64,000 nt of DNA from an uncultured Bacteroidales bacterium (lineage in GTDB: Bacteria; Bacteroidota; Bacteroidia; Bacteroidales; Paludibacteraceae), in assembly GCA_945921355.1 (NCBI GenBank), contig CAMEKM010000004.1:6305-70304 (forward strand), read 5' to 3'. The notes under the pieces were generated by a model. The model saw only the letters and a program-made list of their open reading frames with translations, was not told the origin of the DNA and made no database searches. Both the position numbers and the translations under genes were made by a program. Numbering within the stretch: position 1 is the first letter of the stretch; the number at the start of each line of letters is the position of its first letter. Shown here piece by piece: positions 2 through 17,095 of the stretch.

Positions 2-649
2 GATAAGTTCCTCAAACTGCTTGTCAAAGAGTGGAAACACCTGCTAACCAAAGACCCACAAAAAGCAAAACACTTTGTCCGCATCGTCAGCGACAAAGCA
101 TTGGAGCGTTTGATTAGTTACTTGCCTATATCCAATAGCGAAGCGTCCCATAGCGAAGTGTCACAACTCCCCTCCCTTCAGGGAGGGGCTGGGGGTAGGC
201 TTTATCACGGCGGTCACTACGATAAGGAAACACGCTACCTCAGCCCAACCATACTGACTAATGTATCGGAGGACGCTCCAGTGATGCAAGAAGAGATTTT
301 CGGTCCAATCTTCCCCGTGCTGACATTCAAGGAGATAGATGAGGTTATCACTTTTGTTACCGACCGTGAGAAGCCATTGGCATTGTATTATTTCGGTACC
401 AATGGCGATTATGTATTGCGCCATACATCTTCAGGCGGTGCTTGTGTGAATGATGTGATTATGCACATAGTGAATCACAATGTGCCCTTTGGCGGTGTAG
501 GCAATTCGGGTATGGGGTCATATCATGGCAAGGAGAGTTTCCTATCCTTCTCTCACCGCCGTTCGGTAGTATCTACCCCAACCTTCATCGACATGCCCTT
601 CCGCTACATGCCGTATAAGCTATTCAACCTCATAAAGAAAATGGTCTAA
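2..649 (+). CDS. aldehyde dehydrogenase family protein, C-terminal part (5' end outside window), with an in-frame ~26-aa repeat-encoded insertion
   Basis: The frame is open from nt 2. ALDH-type motifs EEIFGPIFPV and PFGGVGNSGMGSYHGK are present. The segment ISNSEASHSEVSQLPSLQGGAGGRL is encoded by a hairpin repeat at 121-204. Confidence 0.8.
   Translation, partial: DKFLKLLVKEWKHLLTKDPQKAKHFVRIVSDKALERLISYLPISNSEASHSEVSQLPSLQGGAGGRLYHGGHYDKETRYLSPTILTNVSEDAPVMQEEIFGPIFPVLTFKEIDEVITFVTDREKPLALYYFGTNGDYVLRHTSSGGACVNDVIMHIVNHNVPFGGVGNSGMGSYHGKESFLSFSHRRSVVSTPTFIDMPFRYMPYKLFNLIKKMV
165..204 (+). repeat. hairpin element CCCCTCCCT-TCA-GGGAGGGG followed by CTGGGGGTAGGC, lying in frame inside the ALDH CDS
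   Basis: The inverted repeat is read directly. The same element type recurs at least 8 times inside the CDS 11968-13626. Confidence 0.85.
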
Positions 650-3291: not shown

Positions 3292-4194
3292 TTACTTCCC
3301 TTTAGGCAATTTCTTCTGAATGAATGGACGAGCTTTTATCGACATTACTACCGAATCCACATTCAGCACCGCACTATCCAAATCTTTCAGTGCCGTATTA
3401 AGATTATCATATAGGGCTTTATCGTTCAACAACAGCCCCAATGTTCCCTCTTCCGACTCTAATGCTGTGTTCACCGAAGCTATAACGCGATTCAGTTCGG
3501 CAATGGTATTCTGTATCTGCGCCTGACGCACGTCGGCCATCACCGCTTGCAAGTCTGCTAAGGTGCTATCCACCTTCTCCACCACCCCAGGCAAATCATT
3601 GTGGGTCAAATGACGAATATCCTTACCGCTAACCTCCAAGTCGGCTGTAATTTGCTCAATATGCTTCAGGGTAGCTGCTAAGTTACCCTCTTCCATCTCG
3701 TTGTTAAGCGTAGCCACCAATGCGTTTGCTTGCATCAGTACACTATCCAAATGCGCCAAAATACCAGTTTGCAAATTATCCACCAATCCTGGCACCACGA
3801 TAGATGGCAATGTATCGCCTTGTTGATAAGGCATGGCGCGATTGGCGAGTGCAGGCAACTGCAACTCAATGGCACTACCACCCAGCAGACCATCGGCAAG
3901 CAACGCCATTTGTGTACCACGAGGAAGCACAATTCCTTTGTCGATATGTACCCCCACAACAAACGCAGGTGTACGTGTAAAATCATATTGTATGCTTTCT
4001 ACTAAACCCACCTTGTGACCTAAGATATACACAGGTGCTTGCTCGGTTAATCCATTACTGCGCTCAAAATAGCCGTAGTAACACTCTGTTGGCGAAAAGA
4101 TATTCACTCCTTTCAAAAAATTAAATCCAAAATACAAGATGCCAGCACATACTATTGCCAGCACTCCCACTTTCACTTCTCTTGCGTATTTCAT
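3292..4194 (-). CDS. MlaD/MCE family protein
   Basis: N-terminal TM segment plus an MCE-like start (REVKVGVLAIV...FLKG) and a coiled-coil C-terminus. It overlaps the upstream amidase gene by 4 nt. Confidence 0.7.
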   Translation of the reverse strand: MKYAREVKVGVLAIVCAGILYFGFNFLKGVNIFSPTECYYGYFERSNGLTEQAPVYILGHKVGLVESIQYDFTRTPAFVVGVHIDKGIVLPRGTQMALLADGLLGGSAIELQLPALANRAMPYQQGDTLPSIVVPGLVDNLQTGILAHLDSVLMQANALVATLNNEMEEGNLAATLKHIEQITADLEVSGKDIRHLTHNDLPGVVEKVDSTLADLQAVMADVRQAQIQNTIAELNRVIASVNTALESEEGTLGLLLNDKALYDNLNTALKDLDSAVLNVDSVVMSIKARPFIQKKLPKGK

Positions 4195-4928
4195 CTCTTA
4201 TAATAATTTTCAAAGGCATTAAAAATGCCGTTCACTATTCCATTTTTGCCTGCTTCACTTGCGAGCCACTTCTCCTCTTCTGCATTGCTGATAAAGCCCA
4301 TCTCCACCAGCACACTTGGGCATGCCGATTGCAACAACACCCAAAATGCAGCTTGTCTCACTCCACGATTCGCACGTTGCAGCGTACCCACAAACTGTTT
4401 TTGCACCAATTCGGCAAACACCAAACTATTATCCATATACTGGTTCTGCATCAATTCGAAGATGATATAGCTCTCTATCGAATTAGGGTCAAAACCCTGA
4501 TATACCGTCTGATCGGTCTCCAGCTTCATCACCGCGTTCTCGCGCATGGCCACATCCAGATTATCCTCCATGCGGTCTGTACCAAGAATGAATGTCTCTG
4601 CGCCACATGCTTTTCTATTCTCTGCGGCGTTAGTGTGAATACTGATGAATAAATCCGCATGATTCTTATTCACGATATCCGCGCGTTGTTGCAGTGGCAG
4701 GAACACATCTGTTGTACGTGTCATCACCACATTCACATCGGGATAATGTTGGCGTATCTTATCTGCCAGTCGCTGTGCTACGCATAGGTTGAGGTCTTTC
4801 TCTTTCAGTTTCAGTACATGTCCTATTGCACCAGCATCATTACCGCCATGTCCAGCGTCTATTACCACGGTAAATGACATGCAACACAGTGCCACTACTA
4901 TCACTAATATTGTCCGTACAAATTTCAT
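4191..4928 (-). CDS. N-acetylmuramoyl-L-alanine amidase (Amidase_3)
   Basis: Signal peptide, VVIDAGHGGNDAGAIG, and SIHTNA motifs. Confidence 0.9.
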   Translation of the reverse strand: MKFVRTILVIVVALCCMSFTVVIDAGHGGNDAGAIGHVLKLKEKDLNLCVAQRLADKIRQHYPDVNVVMTRTTDVFLPLQQRADIVNKNHADLFISIHTNAAENRKACGAETFILGTDRMEDNLDVAMRENAVMKLETDQTVYQGFDPNSIESYIIFELMQNQYMDNSLVFAELVQKQFVGTLQRANRGVRQAAFWVLLQSACPSVLVEMGFISNAEEEKWLASEAGKNGIVNGIFNAFENYYKR

Positions 4929-5065: not shown

Positions 5066-6442
5066 ATGCAAAGACATTTACACGATATATCTCCACTGAG
5101 TACCTCCTATGAGATGGGACTCAAGCGTGTGCTGCTTTCTGCTAATGAGAGTGGATGTAGTATCACGCAGATTGCAGTGATTGAACTAAAAGCAGGCGAA
5201 CATAGTGCGCAACATATCCACCCGGATTTGCAAGACGCGTTTTTTATCCTCGATGGCGAGATTGATATCACCATTGATGGACAAGTGCATCATTGCAAAC
5301 CCGAAGACTTTGTTTTCGTAGAGCACCTCAAGGCCTACGAGCTGCACGCCATTACGGATGTACGTATGTTGGCGATGGGCTGCGTGATTGAAGCGCAGCG
5401 CACCAAGCTATACCCTATGCTCTTCGAGCCCAACCTACGCACTATGGTATGGGGTGGCAGACGTTTGACTAATTGGAAGCAGTTGCCCGAACAAGATAAT
5501 ATAGGCGAGAGTTGGGAAGTATCCACGCTGGATATGCTGCCTTCGGTGGTTGCTAATGGTACATGGGCAGGATATCCACTCCGCGAAGTAATCGGCAAGA
5601 TGCCTGATGCTATTCTGGGTAAGGCTGTAGCCAAGAAGTATCAGAACGATATGCCTCTGCTGGTCAAACTCATTGATACAAAAGCGGACTTGAGCGTACA
5701 AGTCCATCCCGATGATGCGATGGCGCTGCGCGAACACAATGCATCGGGCAAGACAGAGATGTGGTATGTGATTGATGCCGACCCTGATGCTTATATCTAT
5801 GCGGGATTCAAAGAGGAGCTCACTCCCGAAGAATACGCACATCGTGTAGCAGATGGCACCATCATAGATGCATTAGCAAAACATGAGATTCATACTGGCG
5901 ACGTGTTCTATATCCCTGCAGGTCGCGTGCATGCGATAGGCAAGGGCGTGCTATTAGTGGAGGTGCAGCAGTCATCGGATGTCACCTATCGTATCTACGA
6001 TTATGATCGTCTGGGCTTAGACGGCAAACCGCGTGCATTGCATACCGAACTGGCAGCGCAGGCGCTGGATTATCGCGTGCATAAGGAGTATAAGAATAGT
6101 TATAGGGATGATATAGATACTGCCAATCCATGTTTAGATACCGAGCACTTCAGTGTGCGCGTGGTGTCGCTTACGCAGGCTATTCACCGCAATATGGTGA
6201 ACTACGATTCGTTTGTGATCAGCACTTGTACGCAAGGTAGTTGCAAGATTCGTATCCGCAGTACGCGCGATGAGGTGGAATTGCGCGAAGGTTTCTCGTG
6301 CCTGATTCCCGCGGCCATTGCCGATTATGATATCATTCCTATCACGCCTACGGCAAAACTGCTGGAAGCATATATCAACAATAGTTCTCAGAAAACATTC
6401 CGTCGCATGATTTCGCAATTCTTGCACTTGAGCGGATTCTAA
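5066..6442 (+). CDS. manA: mannose-6-phosphate isomerase (type I) with an N-terminal cupin domain
   Basis: PMI motifs SWEVS, LLVKLIDTKADLSVQVHPDD, EMWYV and VEVQQSSDVTYRIYDY. Residues 1-110 form a separate cupin (HIHPDLQDAFFILDGE). Confidence 0.85.
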   Translation: MQRHLHDISPLSTSYEMGLKRVLLSANESGCSITQIAVIELKAGEHSAQHIHPDLQDAFFILDGEIDITIDGQVHHCKPEDFVFVEHLKAYELHAITDVRMLAMGCVIEAQRTKLYPMLFEPNLRTMVWGGRRLTNWKQLPEQDNIGESWEVSTLDMLPSVVANGTWAGYPLREVIGKMPDAILGKAVAKKYQNDMPLLVKLIDTKADLSVQVHPDDAMALREHNASGKTEMWYVIDADPDAYIYAGFKEELTPEEYAHRVADGTIIDALAKHEIHTGDVFYIPAGRVHAIGKGVLLVEVQQSSDVTYRIYDYDRLGLDGKPRALHTELAAQALDYRVHKEYKNSYRDDIDTANPCLDTEHFSVRVVSLTQAIHRNMVNYDSFVISTCTQGSCKIRIRSTRDEVELREGFSCLIPAAIADYDIIPITPTAKLLEAYINNSSQKTFRRMISQFLHLSGF

Positions 6443-10046: not shown

Positions 10047-11192
10047 TTAACAAATTTTTCCTTCCCAAAGCAATTTGAGAAATTCCATAGCAGGTAGTAC
10101 CTCCACTCCATTCAACATACGCGAATTGCGATCCATAGAAACAACTATCAAACGAGCATTAGCATACTCTTCAGCAAACGCTTTTAGTCCTTTCGTGTGT
10201 TTTGACTGTACCTCATCCGTACTTTTAAACTCTATTGCTACACGTCCGTCACCTATCACAGCATCAACTTCATATCCGCTAGCTGTACGCCAATAACTCA
10301 ATTGTTCGTTGCTCTCTGAGTAGCCCAAATATGCCACCAATTCCTGTATTAAAAAATGTTCAAAAGCGTGACCAAAATCCACAGAACCTGGCTGCATATT
10401 GAAACGATGGAGCAAATGATTAGCCACCCCTACATCAAAATAGTAGAAACGTGGAGCAGTAATAGCTCGGCGCTTTTTAGAACGCGTAAACGCAGGTATC
10501 ATATACCCTATCAATGTCTGCTGTAATATTGTAAAGTACTCCTTTACAGTCACTGCACTAACACCACAGTCCTGCGCAATATTACTATAATTGATTATTT
10601 CTCCATTACATTGTGCCGCAATATCTAAGAAACGATTAAACGATGCCAACTGACGAACCACAGCCTCGTCTTGAATCTCTTCTTTAAGGTATGTACCGAT
10701 ATACGCCTCTAAACGTTTTTGGGGATTAATAGCTAAATAATGACGTGGAAGCATACCATGATTGATAGCACGTATGATATCAAAATCTGGAATCTCTGCG
10801 CTTACAAAAGGATACAATTTCACAGACATAGCACGCCCTCCTAAAAGATTGGTACCTATACGCTTGAGTTTACGTGCGCTTGACCCACACAAGATAAATC
10901 GTATACCACAATTAACAATCAACCAATGAACTTCGTCTAACAGCTGAGGTATCTTTTGTATTTCATCTATAACAACTAAAGTCTCTTGTCCAAAAGAGAG
11001 CAGTTCTTCACGTAGTAATTGCGGACGACGTAACAAGCGAGTATATTCATCGCTCTTTAACAGATCATAAATCTTAGCATCAGGATAAAGATTTTTAATT
11101 AGCGTACTTTTTCCGACTTGTCTAGCTCCCCACAGAAATACACTATCTTCTTGTGCATCAGCAACTTTCTGTATTCGTACAAACTCATTCAT
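10047..11192 (-). CDS. AAA family ATPase (AAA_14 + DUF4143 type)
   Basis: Walker A GARQVGKST, Walker B VVIDEIQ, and a C-terminal DUF4143-like region. Confidence 0.85.
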   Translation of the reverse strand: MNEFVRIQKVADAQEDSVFLWGARQVGKSTLIKNLYPDAKIYDLLKSDEYTRLLRRPQLLREELLSFGQETLVVIDEIQKIPQLLDEVHWLIVNCGIRFILCGSSARKLKRIGTNLLGGRAMSVKLYPFVSAEIPDFDIIRAINHGMLPRHYLAINPQKRLEAYIGTYLKEEIQDEAVVRQLASFNRFLDIAAQCNGEIINYSNIAQDCGVSAVTVKEYFTILQQTLIGYMIPAFTRSKKRRAITAPRFYYFDVGVANHLLHRFNMQPGSVDFGHAFEHFLIQELVAYLGYSESNEQLSYWRTASGYEVDAVIGDGRVAIEFKSTDEVQSKHTKGLKAFAEEYANARLIVVSMDRNSRMLNGVEVLPAMEFLKLLWEGKIC

Positions 11193-11272
11193 CTTGGTTA
11201 ATTATAATGACAATCTAAAGTTAAACTTTGCATTATCCTGACAAAACAAAGTTATGTTTTGTATTTTCGCTG

Positions 11273-11304
11273 CAAAGGTACTACAAAAAATGCACATATG
11301 CAAG
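11273..11304 (-). promoter_or_regulatory. promoter of the ATPase gene
   Basis: -7 box TACCTTTG (11273-11280) and a -33-like TTGC about 20 nt upstream. Confidence 0.55.
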
Positions 11305-11419
11305 CAAAGTGAGCACTTTTTCATGGATTTTGCAAGTATTTTGTTTATTTTCTTTAAGCGTAGAGCGTAGAGTGTAGAGGCAGTGGTTAGTTTCTACGCT
11401 TTACACACTACGCTATTTG

Positions 11420-11779
11420 TTATTCTTTGTATTTTGATCGTAAAGCAGAAAGTTGTCTTGCTATACCATCAACCTTTTCTTCAATTGTATTATATTGTTC
11501 TTTGGTTATATATCCTAAATCCACAGAGACATCTAATTGGCTGTCCACTTCCATCATAGATGCGTATGCAAATCCAAGGAAGTGTGCTTTTTCTTTGTCA
11601 GACATACGATTCATACCCTCTGCTATATTAGATGTTATAGAGATTACAGCACGACGAATCTGGTCACATAAGGCATATTTTTCTTCTATTGGAAACAGTT
11701 TCAGCAGTTTATACACATCAACCACTAAACTCTTTGCATCTTGATACACATTCAAGTTTTTATACGAATACTTATTCAT
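11420..11779 (-). CDS. four helix bundle protein (23S rRNA intervening-sequence protein family)
   Basis: YKNLNVYQDA...RRAVISITSNIAEG...EVDSQL pattern. The ATG is at 11779; the ORF-track TTG start lies 6 nt upstream. Confidence 0.85.
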   Translation of the reverse strand: MNKYSYKNLNVYQDAKSLVVDVYKLLKLFPIEEKYALCDQIRRAVISITSNIAEGMNRMSDKEKAHFLGFAYASMMEVDSQLDVSVDLGYITKEQYNTIEEKVDGIARQLSALRSKYKE

Positions 11780-11802
11780 AATCAATTATCTATCTCATTA
11801 AA

Positions 11803-11981
11803 CACTCTACACTCTACACCCTACACTCTACACTCTACACCCTACACTCTACACCCTACACTCTACACTCTACACCCTACACTCTACACTCTACACCCTA
11901 CACTCTACGCCCTACACCCTACACCCTACACTCTACGCCCTACACCCTACACTCTACACTCTACACCCTACACCCTACACC
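11803..11981 (+). repeat. (CTACACY)n heptanucleotide tandem array, ~25 units
   Basis: Read directly. The plus strand is almost G-free. The complement carries TAG every 7 nt. Confidence 0.95.
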
Positions 11982-13626
11982 ATTTCATCCACTTCACCCC
12001 AAATTTCCCAATCTCATATAGCAGCGGTTTGCGAACACAAAGGAATTGCCCGTGCTCCACCAATTCGCCGCCAAATTCCATCTTAAAGTCGCGCACACCA
12101 TAAGGCACATTGGGTTTGCCAGCTCCCATAAAATCAAAGAGGGGCAAGTTGTTACTCTTGGCATATTCGATGGCGGCATAGGTGGCCATCACTGATGGAT
12201 ACAGTTCGCGATACTCCTCATCCAGTCCACATACATACCACTCGTATATGGCTTTGTTATTGAGGATTGGGCACATCATTCCGCCAATGACTTTATCTTG
12301 GTACTTTACCAGTAGGTACTTTCCTACTCCACTGCGATAGAAGTGCAAGAAAAACGCTTCGCTCCATAGCGGTGTACGCACCTTGGTGCGATAGAGTCGG
12401 CTGAGTATCTGGTACCAATCGCGTATTTCTTGTTCGGATGTTGCTAATACAATCTCTACCCCATTCTTTAATGCCTTCTTCACTTGACGGACACGTTGCT
12501 CGGTCATGGTGTGCGTAGCAGTGCAATGCACATGAATATCATAGTGTGGCTGGTAGGCGAAGCCGGCATTTTGAAACACCTTCTTCCAACGACTGTAGTC
12601 GTGGAAGTTGCGAGTTTCAATATAGATCGGTAAGCCTACCCCAGCCTTCCCTGAAGGGAAGGGGGATTGTTTCGTAGAATCTAAAGTCCTTCCTTTTAGG
12701 GAAGGATTTAGGATAGGCAGATTTTTCACTGCACTTAGCAGCGCACTCAGCGCTTCGTCGCTGATATCCTCTGCGAGCAATGGTCCGCCGATGATAATCG
12801 CACGGCGAGTGAAGAACTGCTTGATTGCATTGCGCTCACGCGTGATGTAGCCAACTATCACGCCTACCAGCCTATTCCCTGCCCTTCCCTGAAGGGAAGG
12901 GAGTGTAGAGCCCCCCCCTAACCCCTCCCTAAAGGGAAGGGAGTTAATACTAGGTAAGGATTTTAATGTATCTTTTATCTTTTGGATAACAGCATCGGGA
13001 TTGCAGAGCAATTCTTCGTTTTTGAAACGGAATTCTATATAGCCCAAACGATGTAAATGCGCTGTACGTGCCTCATCATATTCCTTCTGTCGAGGATCAT
13101 TATGATATCCACCATCCAACTCTATTATCAAACCCTTATCCAAACAAATAAAATCTACTATATAGCCTAATATAATATGTTGACGACGGAAATGTGCTCC
13201 TAACTTATTTCCCTTCAACATATCCCATAGCACAGACTCTGCCTCTGTGGGATTTTTGCGATTATTCACCGCATTCTCCTTCAACAAACCATACTGTGTA
13301 CTATCCGCCGTATGCGCACCAAAAACCTTCGCAAAACTATTGTATTCTCTTCCCTTTAGGGAGGAGTTAGAGGTAGGCTCTTTTAGGGAAGGATTTAGGA
13401 TAGGCTGATTGAAGGGGTTAGGGGTAGGCTCATAAAAGTCCTTCCCTTTAGGGGAGGATTTAGGAGAGGCTTCCACACCTATGGCAAACGGTGTCATCTC
13501 TTCTGGATTAGCCGCATAGAACTCATACGCCTCCTTGGTTTGGAACCACGTGGCATAGGGCGAGCGGTCAATGAGCGCTTGCCATTGCTGTGGGTCTATT
13601 TCGGGGTATATTAGGAGTTGTGTCAT
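11968..13626 (-). CDS. FemAB/GNAT-like acyltransferase family protein interrupted in frame by repeat elements and a DUF559 nuclease domain
   Basis: The N-terminus (YATWFQTKEAYEFY) and C-terminal two-thirds (EWYVCGLDEEYRELYPS, FDFMGAG, FKMEFGG) look FemAB-like. Residues ~53-253 and ~303-333 are insert-derived. Confidence 0.65.
   Translation of the reverse strand: MTQLLIYPEIDPQQWQALIDRSPYATWFQTKEAYEFYAANPEEMTPFAIGVEASPKSSPKGKDFYEPTPNPFNQPILNPSLKEPTSNSSLKGREYNSFAKVFGAHTADSTQYGLLKENAVNNRKNPTEAESVLWDMLKGNKLGAHFRRQHIILGYIVDFICLDKGLIIELDGGYHNDPRQKEYDEARTAHLHRLGYIEFRFKNEELLCNPDAVIQKIKDTLKSLPSINSLPFREGLGGGSTLPSLQGRAGNRLVGVIVGYITRERNAIKQFFTRRAIIIGGPLLAEDISDEALSALLSAVKNLPILNPSLKGRTLDSTKQSPFPSGKAGVGLPIYIETRNFHDYSRWKKVFQNAGFAYQPHYDIHVHCTATHTMTEQRVRQVKKALKNGVEIVLATSEQEIRDWYQILSRLYRTKVRTPLWSEAFFLHFYRSGVGKYLLVKYQDKVIGGMMCPILNNKAIYEWYVCGLDEEYRELYPSVMATYAAIEYAKSNNLPLFDFMGAGKPNVPYGVRDFKMEFGGELVEHGQFLCVRKPLLYEIGKFGVKWMKWCRV
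12634..12718. repeat. two hairpin elements (CCTTCCCTGAAGGGAAGG type), in frame in the CDS
   Basis: GCCTACCCCAGCCTTCCCTGAAGGGAAGGGGG at 12634-12665 and TCCTTCCTTTTAGGGAAGGATTTAGGATAGGC at 12686-12718. Confidence 0.85.
12863..13470 (-). mobile_element. ~600-bp insertion: a DUF559 (Vsr-like endonuclease) coding segment flanked by inverted clusters of hairpin elements, in frame with the host CDS
   Basis: DUF559 motifs NPTEAESVLWDML, FRRQHIILGYIVDFIC and IIELDGGYH span about 12961-13266. Hairpin clusters lie at 12863-12943 and 13347-13470 in opposite orientations. Confidence 0.6.
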
Positions 13627-15134
13627 AATTTAAGCGTTTCCAATATATATTTCAGCAGGTCATCTTTACTAAGATGTATCCAACCTTTTTGTTGAATTTC
13701 TTGAAATGTTTTCGATTTTTTGTCCAAAAGATGTCGTTTTTCTTTCTCATCTACAATGGCAGTCAACATCAATTCACCATTACGTGTTTCGTGCAATGAA
13801 ATATCTTGTAGTAGCACACCATTCTCAGATCTATACTCACGCACCATCGTTGGTACATGATGCAACAACTTCGTCCGATATCTCTCAGGCAGCAGTTCTG
13901 AAATATATGCTTCTATCTTATCTGCCCAATACCTGCTAACGCCTGCATCCATAAGATATGTCCAGCAAGCAGAAAGCACGTTTGCCACATCGTCTATGAT
14001 ACTAGCTGCATTTTTTATCGAATTTTCCTTGGCAAACACCAACAGATCTTCTTCTGTGATATTAGCCACCTTACCACGCATCGATAGTTGATGGTAGTTT
14101 GTGTATGGCATAGCCTTCATATCGACAGTAAACGTAACATCGTATGCTGGTGTGATTTGCCATCCTCCGTTCCGTGGCAGCATAAATGCAAAGTTCTTAG
14201 AATGATCATCCACATTACCTCCCAAGACATTCATCACCATACGCCTGAATAATTGCTCTTGCTCCATTTGCGAAACGCCCAATCGTCTTGCTACGGTCAT
14301 TAGGTCCTCATACGAGCATGCTGTTTCGCTCATTGCAGCTAATGTTTGGATGTGAATTCGTTCGCCATTTTGGCGGTCGTAACGTTCAGTCAAAAAGTGG
14401 CATTGTCCATCTATCCATTTCAATTGCGATGGCATCATATTCACTCCCATAGCTATGGCCATATTGTAGTAAGCCATTTCTACTTGCGTATGTGGGAAAT
14501 CCGTATTTTCTGCAAATTTCAGGATATAGTATTTATATTCCTTAGGCCAATCCAATTGTCCAGAGCGTATCTCACCTGTTTGCGTATGTATTGCCAAGAT
14601 AGCTTTGGGGTGTTGTCCTCCAGCCGAAGTGCCCACTGCATACAAACGTTGCATGGTCATTGATTCTTCGGGTAATACCGACACTTCTGCACGTTCATCA
14701 AAGATACGCTGCGCCAAGGCATATAATTCGTGTATTTGTATATCCTTGGTATCGTCCTGCAATTCTACTGCAGGTTCAAACTGCAATGCGCCCATACCAC
14801 GACTACCAATAAACGATAATTTATCCACAGGGGTGATGTCGCTACTCTTGATTCCTCTCATTTTCGCCCAATACTCAAACACGCGATTACCCCATCTATC
14901 GGGCAGAGAGTCTGCGATAAAAGGAGGAAGTCCTTGGTAAAGTTTCTCTTTATTTCCCAAGATGGGTTTCTTTGCGGCTATGGATTGGATGGAACATGTC
15001 AATGGTGCTACATCTACACCTGTACGCAAAAAATCTGGGCTATATTCAAATATAGCTCTGTTTGCGGAAGCATCCCAATACATCACTCCTACTTCTTGTC
15101 CCCACAACAGTACTTTTACCAGATTATTTTCCAT
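13623..15134 (-). CDS. hipA: type II toxin-antitoxin system HipA family toxin (long form, ~100-aa C-terminal extension)
   Basis: HipA N-terminal coupling domain and kinase motif GGNVDDHSKNFAF. The stop overlaps the start of the FemAB-like gene (ATGA). Confidence 0.88.
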   Translation of the reverse strand: MENNLVKVLLWGQEVGVMYWDASANRAIFEYSPDFLRTGVDVAPLTCSIQSIAAKKPILGNKEKLYQGLPPFIADSLPDRWGNRVFEYWAKMRGIKSSDITPVDKLSFIGSRGMGALQFEPAVELQDDTKDIQIHELYALAQRIFDERAEVSVLPEESMTMQRLYAVGTSAGGQHPKAILAIHTQTGEIRSGQLDWPKEYKYYILKFAENTDFPHTQVEMAYYNMAIAMGVNMMPSQLKWIDGQCHFLTERYDRQNGERIHIQTLAAMSETACSYEDLMTVARRLGVSQMEQEQLFRRMVMNVLGGNVDDHSKNFAFMLPRNGGWQITPAYDVTFTVDMKAMPYTNYHQLSMRGKVANITEEDLLVFAKENSIKNAASIIDDVANVLSACWTYLMDAGVSRYWADKIEAYISELLPERYRTKLLHHVPTMVREYRSENGVLLQDISLHETRNGELMLTAIVDEKEKRHLLDKKSKTFQEIQQKGWIHLSKDDLLKYILETLKL

Positions 15135-15444
15135 GTCTGATTCTTTTTTTCTGTTTCGATTGCAGTTTCAGCAGTTGGTATGGCGAGATAGGTATTTCTG
15201 GTAGAATCTCAGTTATCCCCTCTAATTGTTCGATCACACGCAGTAGTGCCAACAGGTTTCCCATGGTGATATTTACAGCTTTGCCATTTTCGAATGCACG
15301 CAACGTAATGAGACTAACACCTGCCTTTTCTGCCACTTCTTTTTGTGTCAATTCAGCGCATAGTCTGTAAGTTTTGTACTGTGCTCCTAGAGACTGAATA
15401 ATCTCTGCATTGGATAATCCTTGTATATTATCTTTAGTCAGCAT
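15124..15444 (-). CDS. helix-turn-helix (XRE-type) transcriptional regulator, HipB-like antitoxin
   Basis: 106 aa with an HTH (LTQKEVAEKAGVSLITLRAFENG). It overlaps hipA by 11 nt. Confidence 0.82.
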   Translation of the reverse strand: MLTKDNIQGLSNAEIIQSLGAQYKTYRLCAELTQKEVAEKAGVSLITLRAFENGKAVNITMGNLLALLRVIEQLEGITEILPEIPISPYQLLKLQSKQKKRIRHGK

Positions 15445-15469
15445 GGTTCTGTATATATCAATTTCGCTG

Positions 15470-15501
15470 CAAAGGTAAATATTTTTTCTCTTATATGCAA
15501 A
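15470..15501 (-). promoter_or_regulatory. promoter of the hipB-hipA-(FemAB-like) transcription unit
   Basis: TACCTTTG at 15470-15477 and TTTG at 15498-15501, with a 20-nt spacer. It lies 26 nt upstream of the ATG. Confidence 0.65.
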
Positions 15502-15573
15502 TTTTTCGCATAAAAGATAATATTTTTTCTCTTTTTATCCTTGAGATACCCTCCTTAAGGTCGTTACCTCGCC

Positions 15574-15786
15574 TCTACACCCTACACCCTACACCCTACA
15601 CTCTACACTCTACACTTTACACCCTACACTCTACACTCTACACCCTACACTTTACACCCTACACTCTACACCCTACACTCTACACCCTACGCCCTACACC
15701 CTGCACTCTACACCCTACACTCTACACCCTACACTCTACACTCTACACCCTACACTCTACACCCTACACTCTACACCCTACACCCA
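15574..15786 (+). repeat. (CTACACY)n heptanucleotide tandem array, ~30 units
   Basis: Read directly. Same unit and orientation as 11803-11981. Confidence 0.95.
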
Positions 15787-15805
15787 TAGCCTTTTATTAC
15801 ACTTT

Positions 15806-17095
15806 TCAATCTTTACGTTGCAATAGCCAATCTGCTGCTAAAACGCAATGAATTATTTTTCCATTCACTTCAATATCTCGTTCTTCGCCACGCATCATGA
15901 TAAGTGTCATGTTATTACAATTTGTTAATTTTGAACCTTTTAGCAAACCATTAATTTCTCTGTTATACAATTTAGTGGATGGATCTATAAAGTCATATGT
16001 CACTTGTATCAGTTCGCGCACATGCGAGGATTCTACCACTACAAAATCCACTTCAAAATCCTGCACCTTACGCAGATAATAAAGTTGTTCGTACTCCGAA
16101 TGCAGACGTCGCAGCAGTTCTACTGCTACCACATTCTCCAAACGCAAGCCAAAACTTTCTGTCAACAAAGCATTTTCATGTTGCGAGATAAAAGCATTAT
16201 CCACGGCATATAATTTGCGCCCCGAATTACGCTCACTGCTCTTGAGCGAAAACTTAGGAATAAGACAGAGCAAATATGCATTTTGTAGATAGGTGATATA
16301 GTTCTTTACAGTATGCACCGACTTGATGCCCAACTCTTCCGCAATATCGTTGAATGATTTTTCTTGGCAAAACCAATCTAGCAAGCGATTAGCCAAGTCC
16401 GACAATGTTTGCTGATAGCGAACCTTATATCGATGACATATATCCTTTTTGATAATCGCCTCACGCAATGAGAATAGATAGTTACGTTTGTTAATCTCAG
16501 GCGAGGTTATTAATTCGGGGAAACCACCAGACATAATATACTCGTCCAATGCATGATCGCGAAGCCCATATGCTAAGGTAGTAGCAGTATTTATATCCAC
16601 CCCCTTGATAGCACAATATTCTGCAAATGAAAATGGATATAGTTCTATTTGATGATAGCGCCCTGTCAGATGCGTACTTAGTTCTCCACTAAGTAAATTC
16701 GCATTACTACCCGTAAGTATCAATTTAACCCCTTGTCGAAGCAATCTATTCACAAACAAGTACCAACCACTGACATTTTGTACCTCATCTAGGAATAGAT
16801 GTGTGAATGCCCCATAGATAGCATAGAGTTCTTGCAATATATCATCTAAATCTTCTGCAGACACTCGTTGTAAGCGTTCGTCATCGAAATTTACATAAGC
16901 GAAATGTACGCCACTTTGCAAGAGAACTTTTTGGCACAATGTAGATTTTCCACTACGTCGTACGCCAATTACTATCTGAGCCAGTTTGCTATTAAGTTGA
17001 ATCTCCTGTTCTTCTTTTCGGGTACATAACGTGCCCAAATCAATTGTTTCCAACTCTGCTTTTTGGTTCGATAAGATTCGTTTTAAGTCCTTCAT
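15806..17095 (-). CDS. AAA family ATPase (AAA_14 + DUF4143 type)
   Basis: Walker A GVRRSGKST and Walker B LFLDEVQ. It is a paralogue of 10047-11192. Confidence 0.85.
   Translation of the reverse strand: MKDLKRILSNQKAELETIDLGTLCTRKEEQEIQLNSKLAQIVIGVRRSGKSTLCQKVLLQSGVHFAYVNFDDERLQRVSAEDLDDILQELYAIYGAFTHLFLDEVQNVSGWYLFVNRLLRQGVKLILTGSNANLLSGELSTHLTGRYHQIELYPFSFAEYCAIKGVDINTATTLAYGLRDHALDEYIMSGGFPELITSPEINKRNYLFSLREAIIKKDICHRYKVRYQQTLSDLANRLLDWFCQEKSFNDIAEELGIKSVHTVKNYITYLQNAYLLCLIPKFSLKSSERNSGRKLYAVDNAFISQHENALLTESFGLRLENVVAVELLRRLHSEYEQLYYLRKVQDFEVDFVVVESSHVRELIQVTYDFIDPSTKLYNREINGLLKGSKLTNCNNMTLIMMRGEERDIEVNGKIIHCVLAADWLLQRKD

Follow-up and report, generated by a model that had tools for sequence, protein, structure and literature searches.

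A DUF559 nuclease-coding segment bounded by inverted hairpin repeats and inserted in frame in a FemAB-like gene of Bacteroidales is probably a selfish mobile element

Results

A FemAB-like transferase gene contains two in-frame inserts

The window analysed here is a 64,000-nucleotide stretch of DNA from an uncultured Bacteroidales bacterium of the Paludibacteraceae. It contains a FemAB-like gene with two inserts, and the features of this gene, together with a solitary repeat unit elsewhere in the window, are as follows.

11968..13626, minus strand: host ORF of 552 aa, a FemAB-like / tandem-GNAT (FemX-fold) transferase in which two in-frame inserts are read through
12870..13470, minus strand: whole DUF559 element at site A, repeat end to repeat end, 601 nt, delimited by comparison of filled and empty sites
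13339..13470, minus strand: N-side (left) repeat cluster of four units, encoding a 44-aa Pro/Ser/Lys-rich linker ASPKSSPKGKDFYEPTPNPFNQPILNPSLKEPTSNSSLKGREYN
13440-13457 and 13348-13365, minus strand: complete hairpins of the N-side cluster, from sequence
13381-13407 and 13408-13431, minus strand: half units of the N-side cluster, from sequence
12961..13335, minus strand: DUF559 (Vsr-like PD-(D/E)XK) putative nuclease core of 125 aa (aa 98-222)
12870..12960, minus strand: C-side (right) repeat cluster of two inverted units, encoding a Gly-rich linker ..SLPSINSLPFREGLGGGSTLPSLQGRAGNR
12883-12900 and 12923-12940, minus strand: hairpins of the C-side cluster, from sequence
12634..12718, minus strand: site B, an 85-nt MITE-like derivative made up of left repeat, ~21-nt spacer and right repeat
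167..201, plus strand: solo hairpin unit CTCCCCTCCCTTCAGGGAGGGGCTGGGGGTAGGCT, in frame within an aldehyde-dehydrogenase-family ORF and encoding LPSLQGGAGGRL

The host meets both the family-profile and the tandem-GNAT fold criteria for FemAB / FemX-like transferases. Pfam matches to Acetyltransf_6 (PF13480, aa 380-503, 40.9 bits) and FemAB (PF02388, aa 462-539, 37.5 bits) are above their cut-offs, and an AF2 model of the host aligns with FemX and with aminoacyl-tRNA-dependent transferases along the entire target (TMt 0.59-0.67), the Foldseek matches to FemX and Sbb17 having E values of 4e-15 to 1e-12 and TMt 0.58-0.67. The host fold is intact in the model despite the insert; host strands 44-53 and 252-262 pair across it, and DUF559 forms a separate domain. 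The neighbours at five annotated orthologous loci are glycosyltransferase, DegT and ATP-grasp genes, and the host gene is part of a capsule or glycan biosynthesis locus. Its dN/dS is 0.15-0.25. The gene is also mosaic, the window gene (WIN) and one orthologue (L101) being 97% identical in the C-terminal part and ~85% in the N-terminal part. High-identity blocks are present away from the insert as well in host gene comparisons.

Inverted hairpin clusters form the ends of the element

The element corresponds to aa 53-252 (12871-13470) and one further base, the first of codon L253. It takes the place of the four-residue beta-turn EDGH of bare alleles. An interruption within a beta-turn had been proposed from the sequence, and the bare site A of close orthologues (PFAIGVEEDGHLTGVMV) is indeed a four-residue turn; the element is located in a surface beta-turn (beta-hairpin) of a FemX-fold capsule enzyme. 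Positions 12870-13470 read GCCTATTCC...GGAGAGGC on the plus strand, and the coding-strand termini are GCCTCTCC...GGAATAGGC. From end to end there is a hairpin repeat cluster, a complete DUF559 core and an inverted hairpin cluster, and the host frame is open throughout. A tblastn search with the core found no second copy within the window.

Each repeat combines a C-rich/G-rich hairpin with a short G-run that follows it and ends in GGCT, and the ends read ARCCYNCC..., without a GTAG or CGTC tag. The hairpin CCTTCCCTNNAGGGAAGG is present seven times in the window, where 0.04 copies are expected and 0 of 100 shuffles reached seven, and six of the seven copies fall inside the host gene. The two clusters are mutually inverted, the best pair of arms being 12907-12942 and 13346-13381 (36 nt, 86% complementary), which meets the terminal-inverted-repeat criterion of TIR transposons and MITEs. 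Flanking by inverted hairpin clusters, as the sequence-only reading described it, thus holds in outline; the N-side cluster has four tail units but only two complete hairpins. Single-stranded DNA folds of the flank clusters have only modest z-scores (-1.7 to -3.1), so that hairpin thermodynamics alone is weak evidence. An alternation of C:G and T:A at stem positions 4-7 was set aside as evidence of covariation, since the selection demanded six perfect pairs and the count is circular for positions 1-6; enrichment relative to control windows was used instead. Terminators were rejected as an identity for the hairpins, which lack T-runs on the coding strand and gave only a weak match at site B.

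Across both flanks the host frame alone is free of stops, the other five frames having 1-8 stops per flank. Sequence and frames translated in homologues show that two of three frames of the hairpin unit are intrinsically open, whichever way the unit is oriented, so the open frame of a single gene is less improbable than had been supposed from the sequence, and the repeat make-up partly accounts for the in-frame requirement. Stronger evidence for a maintained frame is that the 56 of 120 homologues with the insert are nearly all intact. Both linkers are poorly defined in the AF2 model (pLDDT <50 at aa 56-111 and aa 229-249 on the N and C sides respectively), and their dN/dS of 0.25-0.5 indicates some protein constraint.

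The DUF559 core is conserved and has no start codon of its own

The first claim made for this locus, a complete DUF559 domain in frame in a FemAB-like gene, was confirmed by a Pfam match within the 552-aa ORF (PF04480, aa 116-221, E 4e-30; score 104 bits, cut-off 20.6; positions 4-108 of the 109-position profile). A further match, to the NCBIfam DUF559 model NF007294 (E 2.5e-18, 66 bits), is below the equivalog cut-off of 218 for that model. The criterion of a solved restriction-endonuclease-like fold is met through a relative, PDB 3hrl ('endonuclease-like protein'), which matches aa 75-172 of the insert with an E value of 1e-17, and DUF559 is modelled by AF2 as an alpha/beta domain with a pLDDT of 70-83. 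The D (VDF), ExD (E-x-D-G) and H (GGYH) motifs are intact in the window copy and are kept in 56/56, at least 150/154 and 82/82 copies in three sets of relatives; the core is exactly 125 aa long, without indels, in all 56 FemAB-hosted copies. Two changes at otherwise invariant positions are private to the window copy (D to G in ILDYIVDF and L to F in ELRF), and this copy may be starting to decay.

Core dN/dS is 0.04-0.14 at dS >1, which shows strong purifying selection on the DUF559 core; nuclease activity itself is inferred, and to our knowledge no member of this DUF559 subfamily has been characterised. The insert has neither a start nor a stop codon of its own, and the host ORF is continuous through it. 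No in-frame Met lies upstream of the conserved N-terminal region of the core, which argues that DUF559 is made as part of the host protein; taken with the strong purifying selection, it implies that ribosomes must enter from the host. DUF559 is therefore most likely synthesised within the host protein, from the host start codon, although this is inferred and no product has been demonstrated.

An alternative is that the insert is removed before the protein functions, as an intein, as a self-splicing intron, by RNA excision with paired repeats, or by translational bypass. RNA pairing of the two clusters through their 36-nt arms could join the junctions, and Vsr-like nucleases occur in group I introns and beside split inteins (PMC2677866, PMC3239194). 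We nevertheless consider removal highly improbable. An intein would show C/S at its +1 position, a terminal HN and C/S/T at +1 of the C-extein; the junctions (GVE|ASPK and AGNR|LVGV) have no intein junction residues, as had been noted from the sequence, and Pfam finds no Hint domain, so an intein was rejected. No Rfam match was obtained for 11000-16000 even at E up to 1, no covariance model recognised a group I or II intron ribozyme core in that search, and an intron, a riboswitch or a known RNA was rejected on these grounds. The whole insert is in open frame in 56 homologues, the linkers show the protein constraint given above, and a core that lacks an upstream in-frame Met is strongly purified by selection all the same. 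The flanks are repeat-derived and of variable length among homologues.

Repeat-only units are found at site B and elsewhere

Site B (12634-12718), a repeat-only insert that the earlier reading had not mentioned, is the second in-frame insert of the host gene and encodes PILNPSLKGRTLDSTKQSPFPSGKAGVG. It has the same termini as the element (GCCTAYCC...GGRTAGGC), which are paired in its single-stranded DNA fold (z = -3.1), and the encoded segment has an AF2 pLDDT <50 at aa 306-332. Orthologues have 0, 1, 2 or 3 units at this site. A palindromic unit in frame with the host ORF preserved meets a criterion for elements like the Rickettsia palindromic elements (RPEs); membership of the RPE family itself is not met by the repeats, as Rfam gave no RPE-type match.

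Hairpin arrays are also present in two further loci (L084 and L085). Among ORFs near the arrays in these two and in L072, DUF559 is the only gene bracketed by hairpin modules, although this was not a systematic survey. Of the hairpins in 241 kb of sequence from related Paludibacteraceae, nearly all are in the FemAB-like host gene, and on this evidence the element is not obviously active genome-wide in these relatives.

Alleles with and without the element coexist

Of the 120 best homologues, 56 contain the insert, their repeat content varying, and DUF559-bearing alleles are scattered among the others in the host tree. A segment universal among orthologues would have refuted a mobile insertion; uninterrupted orthologues were found instead, and they define the boundaries given above. 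The homing criterion of polymorphism for presence or absence at a single exact site in a conserved host gene is met. Site A of other close orthologues contains several unrelated inserts instead, and in P0077, P0082 and P0087 the element is at a different beta-turn (site C), with only hairpin remnants at site A; the site-C cores share 85-86% identity with those found at site A in the same host clade. Downstream of the junction L101 is ~97% identical to the window gene, but it is element-free and diverges over 40 nt to the left. Filled alleles share site A down to ~50% host identity, and core and host identities are correlated (r = 0.70). A genome scan gave a single DUF559-bearing orthologue (L011), because its search patterns were derived from the bare allele.

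Among the 56 carriers there are no frame-disrupted fragments except two contig-end truncations and one deletion allele (P0040). P0040 resembles a repeat-mediated deletion or a collapsed assembly. This allele, and the fact that the sequences are metagenome-assembled, could suggest that the locus is a pseudogene or an assembly artefact. We find this scarcely credible, since the architecture was recovered independently from dozens of samples and assemblers, the host dN/dS is low as described above, and the cassette is also in frame in essential single-copy genes.

The insert is younger than the host alleles that contain it

In three pairs of alleles the core dS values are 0.09, 0.27 and 0.055, compared with 1.52, 2.8 and 0.99 for the host, such that synonymous divergence of the insert is 10-18 times below that of the host gene. 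Among pairs picked for discordant host and core identity, an identity island is centred on the insert in 3/3: nucleotide identity is 0.95-1.00 across the insert core with its inner linkers, drops to 0.78-0.88 in the ~20 host codons that adjoin either end, and is 0.4-0.7 in host sequence farther away. An insert younger than the host alleles, with co-converted flanks, is a further criterion for homing that is met. Short high-identity flank tracts of this kind would be the trace expected of gene conversion, and these alignments show that the element has moved between diverged host alleles together with ~20-40 flanking host codons.

These observations bear on whether DUF559 could be an old functional domain of the host family that has been lost repeatedly. 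The shared site in alleles as distant as ~50% and the correlation of core with host identity would fit such an ancient fusion, whereas the much lower dS of the insert and the identity islands contradict it. Close relatives have bare four-residue turns, site A is occupied by several unrelated inserts, the element is also at another loop (site C), and the cassette is present in dozens of unrelated proteins. We regard an ancient fusion as very doubtful; as far as sequence comparison can tell, the insert is a mobile insertion.

It is also possible that self-driven spread has been lost, and that frequent exchange of capsule alleles generates both the patchiness and the islands, with DUF559 retained for a benefit to the host. 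The mosaic host gene and its high-identity blocks distant from the insert favour this, as does the frequency of polysaccharide-locus genes among the hosts. Such passive carriage seems improbable to us, however, because it does not account for the independent insertions in LeuRS, ValRS, IleRS, RecG, IspF, BirA and MiaB or for the second site within the FemAB-like family, because the islands are centred on the insert in all three discordance-chosen pairs, and because a benefit common to such diverse enzymes is hard to imagine.

Related cassettes interrupt unrelated genes, and the repeats accompany the nuclease

The insert matched 19,780 representative clusters (50% identity), and 49 of the 150 best representatives are embedded in longer ORFs. 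Pfam domains of hosts are split by the insert. Related DUF559 cores with the hairpin + G-run module are in frame in LeuRS, ValRS, IleRS, RecG, IspF and glycosyltransferases, among other proteins, and BirA and MiaB are further hosts of related insertions. The LeuRS, ValRS, IleRS and RecG proteins with an internal DUF559 all score above their own equivalog cut-offs. Among metagenome copies 35/82 are embedded and ~20 form the N-terminal part of a longer ORF, which is IspF in at least 13 cases; many hosts are polysaccharide-locus genes. Copies with similar flanks, a search for which had been proposed with the first description of the locus, occur both inside and outside genes. From these matches the arrangement is judged to be widespread in Bacteroidales, essential tRNA synthetases included.

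Flanking inverted repeats exceed the 95th percentile of controls in 74% of 74 copies, and 69/82 copies have a perfect hairpin of 6 bp or more on their downstream side, compared with 16% of control windows. Hairpin density within 220 nt of the cores is 29 times that elsewhere, and nuclease and repeat divergence are correlated across host contexts (rho 0.28, reached in 0/500 permutations). Flank dS is 0.2-0.5 even at a core dS of 1.4. The repeats thus belong to the nuclease. Close DUF559 relatives, 71-86% identical, have host flanks without obvious shared sequence, so that spread between genes cannot be due to a homing endonuclease of the classic long-target type. Inspection of printed junctions by eye, which was not exhaustive, revealed neither a target-site duplication nor a common target at sites A and B or in 41 further copies. 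Apparent repeats beside the IspF copies were rejected as duplications, being IspF coding sequence. The viral contigs scanned gave only distant DUF559 relatives (at most 46% identical) and no sign of phage carriage of the subfamily.

Another interpretation is that the repeats are MITE- or MIC-like ends moved in trans by an unlinked transposase, with DUF559 as a passenger that serves repair, defence or addiction. Mobile insertion cassettes with passenger genes are known and provide a precedent; repeat-only units stand alone at site B, in the aldehyde dehydrogenase ORF and in the L084 and L085 arrays; and transposition is beyond a lone PD-(D/E)XK nuclease. Against this, the hairpins are strongly enriched beside DUF559 and their sequences diverge together with the nuclease, DUF559 alone is bracketed near the three arrays surveyed above, and no target-site duplication was seen. 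DUF559 is the only protein encoded between the ends, with no cognate transposase (DDE, HUH, serine or tyrosine) there, the called genes of the five annotated orthologous loci have no transposase Pfam domain, and the hairpin ends are atypical for DDE transposon inverted repeats. We consider a non-autonomous cassette of this kind unlikely, although it cannot be set aside altogether.

Discussion

The interpretation that we favour as the probable one is that the insert is a selfish mobile element, consisting of a Vsr-like (DUF559) coding segment without start or stop codons and bounded by inverted repeats; its activity, its target and its translation are all inferred. The earlier proposal of a nuclease-carrying mobile element that preserves its host ORF, similar to an RPE with cargo, gains support from the empty sites, the young insert and the related copies. 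We found no description of in-frame DUF559 cassettes in the literature searched, which was mostly non-subscription, and a prior description is not excluded.

The element resembles several known systems in part. RPEs and intragenic REPs are short palindromic repeats in frame in ORFs whose proteins are apparently still functional, and there, as here, repeats in loops are tolerated and not removed (PMC3733652). They have no coding capacity, however, whereas the repeats of the element bracket a conserved 125-aa nuclease domain; its repeat sequences are unrelated to those of RPEs and lack the GTAG or CGTC tag, and its lineage is Bacteroidales, not Rickettsia. In a REPtron, a RAYT transposase gene is flanked by inverted REP hairpins and enzyme-less repeat copies are found elsewhere (PMC3733652), an organisation that the element shares. 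RAYTs are HUH Y1 transposases, though, while the enzyme here is a PD-(D/E)XK nuclease (PF04480), and REPs are mostly extragenic and RAYT genes not embedded in frame, whereas the element is intragenic; the REPtron criteria of an HUH Y1 transposase and GTAG- or CGTC-tagged hairpins are not met.

Vsr, DUF559 and 3r3p have been placed in one clade (PMC3424549), and the Vsr-like (EDxHD) homing endonucleases, including I-Bth0305I and the 'fractured gene' endonucleases, belong to the same nuclease superfamily as the element. Genes for these enzymes lie within conserved host genes, show presence/absence polymorphism and spread to homologous sites (PMC2677866, PMC3239194), and the element shares these properties. 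They are free-standing ORFs in group I introns or between split-intein halves, and splicing restores the host product, whereas the element has no intron, intein or separate ORF and its nuclease stays in the host polypeptide; the homing criterion of residence in a self-splicing intron, an intein or a free-standing ORF is not met. They also lack inverted hairpin ends, and, unlike them, close relatives of the element's nuclease have hosts with no shared target sequence. Inteins are similar in being in-frame insertions in conserved, often essential genes that are translated with the host, and they commonly carry a homing endonuclease domain where the element carries a nuclease domain. The element differs in having no Hint splicing domain or catalytic junction residues and in its flanks, which are variable low-complexity linkers, and the insert is presumably never excised. 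MITEs and mobile insertion cassettes likewise have terminal inverted repeats, derivatives that have lost internal sequence and a coding region as small as a passenger gene, but for the element no target-site duplication or associated transposase was found, and its ends are hairpins with a G-run, not plain inverted repeats, with insertions preserved in frame.

We propose that translation begins at the host start codon and runs through the nuclease, which would then form an internal domain of the host protein. Tolerance by the host would come from the linkers, a Pro/Ser-rich one encoded by the C-rich left end and a Gly-rich one encoded by the G-rich right end, each of which is predicted to be disordered. 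The repeats would act as cis sites as well as coding for flexible Pro/Gly-rich linkers. The nuclease would nick or cut an empty site, a repeat-only site or the structure looped out when filled and empty strands pair, or DNA close to one of these, and recombinational repair would then copy the element in a homing-like gene conversion. Nuclease-promoted, recombination-mediated copying is the most likely mechanism, with nuclease activity being inferred. Rare ectopic events may seed new genes, and only in-frame, co-oriented insertions in tolerant loops would persist, because no others would leave the host gene unharmed and also have the nuclease expressed. Site B, the aldehyde dehydrogenase hairpin and other repeat-only units may be remnants left by internal deletion, or else non-autonomous derivatives. 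How the ectopic step takes place is unexplained, since a PD-(D/E)XK nuclease is incapable of strand transfer and no target-site duplication was found, and some identity islands could be due to passive recombination, the host gene being highly mosaic.

More tentatively, and with somewhat more doubt than confidence, we suggest that these elements constitute an unrecognised class, defined by expression that depends on in-frame insertion, by repeats with a dual role, and by a nuclease that recognises its own paired ends and not host sequence, for example as a looped-out structure in a filled/empty heteroduplex or at repeat-only sites. If this is true, one nuclease lineage could colonise aminoacyl-tRNA synthetases, IspF, RecG and capsule enzymes alike, and the nuclease would be a candidate structure-specific tool.

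A selfish element of the kind favoured here would represent a third mode of intragenic nuclease-encoding parasitism, staying in the protein on self-supplied linkers where others rely on RNA or protein splicing, and it offers a concrete role for the large DUF559 family. Bacteroidales 'fusion proteins' such as DUF559-IspF, or those with DUF559 in LeuRS, ValRS, IleRS, RecG, glycosyltransferases and DegT, would then be chimeras of host and parasite, and transfer of domain architecture and function from them would be wrong. The insertions amount to a natural chart of loops in which a 200-aa domain is accepted, complete with working linkers, and could be of use in protein engineering. Given their concentration in capsule loci, the elements may add to the mosaic evolution of the surface polysaccharides of gut bacteria.

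The insert and its host gene

The host gene is an open reading frame in which Pfam profiles identify a complete DUF559 domain (aa 116–221, E 4e-30, profile positions 4–108 of 109) and C-terminal parts of a FemAB/Acetyltransf_6 enzyme (aa 380–539). The relevant features of the window are:

11968–13626, minus strand: host ORF, 552 aa
12871–13470, minus strand: insert, the residues between ...PFAIGVE(52) and L(253)VGVIV...
13339–13470: N-side flank, four tandem repeat units, two with full hairpins
12870–12960: C-side flank, two units in the orientation opposite to the N-side flank
12634–12718: insert in a second loop (site B), left and right ends separated by 21 nt and sharing the termini of the DUF559 element
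167–201, plus strand: solo hairpin unit, in frame (LPSLQGGAGGRL) in an aldehyde-dehydrogenase-family ORF running off the window start

On the coding strand the insert starts with GCCTCTCCTAAATCC and finishes with GGGAATAGGC, and because these are mutually inverted copies we set the bounds of the element at 12870 to 13470. Bare alleles at this position (site A) encode PFAIGVE-EDGH-LTGVMV, and their DNA reads GGTGTGGAA GAAGATGGGCAC TTGACAGGAGTC, as against GGTGTGGAA/GCCTCTCC...GGAATAGGC/TGGTAGGCGTG in the window. In an AlphaFold model, host strands 44–53 and 252–262 pair as a beta-hairpin, DUF559 (aa 109–223) forms a separate domain (pLDDT 70–83), and pLDDT falls below 50 in the linkers (56–111 and 229–249) and in the site-B insert (306–332); the remainder superposes on FemX and aminoacyl-tRNA-dependent transferases over the full target length. 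The sequence-only reading had described an in-frame DUF559 insert in a FemAB-like gene, which is confirmed with small corrections, and had placed it in a beta-turn, with which the model agrees. It had also judged the open frame unlikely to arise by chance; the host frame is indeed the only one free of stop codons across both flanks, but the open frame is less improbable than was supposed, since a hairpin unit leaves two of the three frames open whichever way it is oriented.

Hairpin ends travel with the nuclease

Seven copies of the hairpin CCTTCCCTNNAGGGAAGG are present in the 64 kb, where 0.04 are expected: four in the insert flanks, two in the repeat-only insert at site B and one at 167–201. 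The best arm pair between the flank clusters is 36 nt long and 86% complementary. The site-B insert is a MITE-like derivative, and at the same site the closest relative of the window gene that lacks DUF559 (L101) has a right end only.

Flanking inverted repeats exceed the 95th percentile of same-geometry controls in 74% of 74 DUF559 copies, and 69 of 82 copies are followed within 130 nt downstream by a perfect C-rich hairpin (6 bp or more), versus 16% of control windows; the density of such hairpins within 220 nt of a core is 29 times that in the rest of the same loci. The module consists in order of a C-rich stem (6–9 bp), a loop of 2–6 nt, the G-rich stem, about 3 nt, and a G-run that mirrors the 3' arm and terminates in GCT (for example CCCCTCCC-TTT-GGGAGGGG-C-TGGGGGTGGG-T). 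The left end is the reverse complement of this right-end module (ARCCYNCCCC...), and the stem sequence varies by lineage while remaining palindromic throughout. Among copies in different host contexts nuclease identity is correlated with end identity (rho 0.28, matched by 0 of 500 permutations), so the nuclease and its inverted hairpin ends travel as one unit. The coding strand is rich in C at the left end and in G at the right, and the ends therefore encode Pro/Ser-rich and Gly-rich peptides (such as SPKSSPKGKD and LPSLQGRAGDRL), which are natural flexible linkers.

The G-rich right ends (GGGAGGGGCTGGGGGTGGG; for example in L044, L046 and L052, three loci with DUF559 copies; window 12870–12945) carry four G-tracts in a G-quadruplex-type motif, and the 3' hairpin arm is repeated in mirror orientation by the right-end tail; instead of the hairpin, the DNA could take up a G4 or triplex form. 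Beside some DUF559 copies the hairpin modules form tandem arrays (in locus L084, at 1868–2204, 5 x 33 nt and 4 x 42 nt), and where they lie inside ORFs (loci L031 and L068) they are translated as peptide repeats, including five of SPLEGEARKGL in an epimerase and two of SAPSPLERAGVRI in a LeuRS.

Presence and movement among host alleles

The DUF559 core is found in 56 of the 120 best homologues of the host protein; the others lack it and are 339–412 aa long. Other orthologues carry at least three other, unrelated repeat-derived inserts at site A, and site B has anything from none to three hairpin units, or else other repeats. A neighbour-joining tree built from host-only columns places DUF559-bearing alleles among bare and other-insert ones. 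Three homologues (P0077, P0082 and P0087) have the cassette in another beta-turn, close to host residue 450, and their cores are 85–86% identical to site-A cores from the same host clade; at site A they retain only hairpin remnants (e.g. ASPQPSPEGKGERL).

Synonymous divergence of the core is far below that of the host in the pairs L017/L018 (host dS 1.52, core 0.09), L019/L020 (2.8 and 0.27) and window/L011 (0.99 and 0.055), all loci with host orthologues. Core dS reaches 1.0–1.9 in other pairs, so its synonymous sites are free to vary, and the low values therefore reflect recent common ancestry of the insert within old, diverged host alleles. This settles the question of insert age, and an ancient fusion, which the dS values contradict, is very improbable. 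Nucleotide identity is 0.95–1.00 in the insert core and inner linkers, 0.78–0.88 in the host sequence bordering it (~20 codons to either side), and 0.4–0.7 farther out. From the right junction onward L101 is ~97% identical to the window gene; it has a different short insert, and the 40 nt to the left of the junction are divergent. The element is polymorphic and has been copied between diverged alleles together with short flanking tracts, and the identity gradients and dS values are what homologous recombination, copying the element with short co-conversion tracts, would be expected to leave behind.

Other rearrangements are seen in these alleles. P0040, a homologue of 322 aa that is 94% identical to the window protein, is a deletion allele lacking DUF559 and host residues 253–302, in which the left-flank repeat of site A (..PNPFNQ/PILNPSLK..) is fused to the site-B repeat, either by recombination between dispersed repeat units or by assembly collapse. 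The 'KLQRSDLQP..RSTG' insert at site B of three orthologues (L007, L011 and L020) is three tandem copies of GCGATCTACAG, which resemble the adjacent host sequence CCGATCTATAT, so this insert looks like a local slippage expansion and not a mobile unit.

Selection on the nuclease and its linkers

The nuclease is under selection. Core length is exactly 125 aa in all 56 FemAB-hosted copies, core dN/dS is 0.04–0.14 (pairs with dS > 1), and the D of VDF, the E and D of ELDG and the H of GGYH are kept in 56/56 FemAB-hosted copies, at least 150 of 154 representatives and 82/82 metagenome copies. The closest solved structure is the DUF559 protein 3hrl (E 1e-17). The conserved region begins ...FAKVFGAHTADSTQY with no Met between the host sequence and that point, and, given selection at the protein level, we infer translation from the host start. 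It is accordingly hard to regard the insert as an intein, an intron or a segment excised from RNA, to which we give very little credence: the defining features are missing, and selection acts on a nuclease without a start codon of its own.

At the protein level the linkers evolve faster than the core (dN/dS 0.25–0.5), and their synonymous rate is only 0.2–0.5 even where core dS is 1.4, a sign that the DNA itself is under constraint. The window copy (12961–13335) has three private substitutions, two of which alter residues that the other 55 FemAB-hosted copies all share (D to G in ILDYIVDF, L to F in ELRF); these could represent early decay.

Cassettes in other host genes

An exhaustive profile-free search of 1.84 billion representative proteins with the 200-aa insert gave 19,780 matches; among the best 150 the core is mid-protein in 49, N-terminal in 26, C-terminal in 17 and in short proteins in 58. 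Host domains split in two by DUF559 (Pfam) include glycosyltransferase 2, UDP-GlcNAc 2-epimerase, DegT, NAD-epimerase, MazG, radical-SAM/TRAM, SpoIID, class I tRNA synthetases and biotin ligase. A metagenome scan recovered 82 copies for which DNA was available, from 80 loci: 35 are embedded, about 20 form the N-terminal part of a longer ORF (IspF in at least 13 cases), and the remainder are free-standing genes that have start and stop codons of their own. Given independent recovery in many samples, an artefact or pseudogene is scarcely credible.

Many proteins accommodate the cassette in frame. Cassette-carrying ORFs exceed the NCBIfam equivalog cut-offs for LeuRS (881 bits, cut-off 548), ValRS (1106, cut-off 704), IleRS (1023, cut-off 621) and RecG (896, cut-off 711), and its presence in essential single-copy genes is a strong argument that the chimeric proteins are functional. 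Passive hitch-hiking on capsule-locus recombination would fit the mosaic host gene, but neither the insertions in synthetases, IspF and RecG nor the second site in the same family, and we consider it quite unlikely.

DUF559 elements are concentrated in capsule or O-antigen type loci. In one (L072; see also L088), two free-standing DUF559 genes (3977–4369 and 5766–6176), each with its own hairpin ends, lie between consecutive genes of one polysaccharide operon.

Neighbourhood of the host gene

Surrounding features in the window are:

10047–11192 and 15806–17095: AAA_14/DUF4143 ATPase genes flanking the FemAB-like/HipA/HTH block
11420–11785, minus strand: PF05635 '23S rRNA intervening sequence protein' gene (four-helix bundle), downstream of the host gene
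11802–11981 and 15575–15785: CTACACC heptamer arrays, 25.6 and 30 copies, same orientation
13623–15444, minus strand: HipA-like toxin gene (HipA_C + Couple_hipA) and HTH_3 gene, directly upstream of the host gene

The arrays bracket the block of FemAB-like gene, HipA and HTH gene, and the host ORF takes its final codons and stop from the first of them; in three orthologous loci (L005, L006 and L012) heptamers of this family make up the in-frame '..TPYTLHPTP..' inserts found at sites A and B. The PF05635 gene directly adjoins the array, the family recurs within the capsule locus of L018, and it may be another type of small selfish gene in these loci. The HipA ORF ends at 13623, 4 nt within the host ORF (start 13626), and the HipBA pair is absent at this place in orthologous loci.

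Mechanism and relation to known systems

We infer that the nuclease is produced within the host protein, as one of its internal domains, and would nick or cut DNA, after which recombinational repair would copy the element; the activity is inferred, and entry into new genes is unexplained. In-frame, co-oriented loop insertions would be the only kind both to spare the host and to express the nuclease. Close DUF559 relatives (71–86% identical) are in hosts without common flanking sequence, and we therefore think it more likely that the nuclease would recognise the ends of the element itself than a long target in the host, although we have no substrate data. Such ends could be presented as repeat-only sites, or as a two-end stem when the filled strand pairs with an empty strand. 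Mobilisation of the cassette by an unlinked transposase would account for the repeat-only units, and a PD-(D/E)XK nuclease is incapable of strand transfer. However, the tight, co-diverging association with DUF559 does not fit, nor does the missing target-site duplication (none was evident by eye, in a non-exhaustive search, at site A, site B or 41 other copies), and we regard this explanation as unlikely. The earlier interpretation of a nuclease-carrying mobile element that preserves its host ORF is supported.

In its allele-to-allele spread the element resembles a homing endonuclease gene. It shares a nuclease superfamily with Vsr-like homing enzymes (PMC2677866, PMC3239194, PMC3424549), but these are defined by an intron, intein or separate ORF, none of which it has. 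As an in-frame palindromic insert it is similar to Rickettsia palindromic elements and intragenic REPs (PMC3733652), from which its conserved protein cargo distinguishes it. REPtrons have a parallel layout, with an enzyme between inverted hairpins and enzyme-less copies elsewhere, although the enzyme class differs. We found no description of in-frame DUF559 cassettes in the literature searched, coverage of which was incomplete; there is a substantial chance, though less than even, that the element deserves to count as a new class. The window element is a clear and, it appears, typical example of a widespread family of nuclease elements that are read through in translation and seem not to have been described before.
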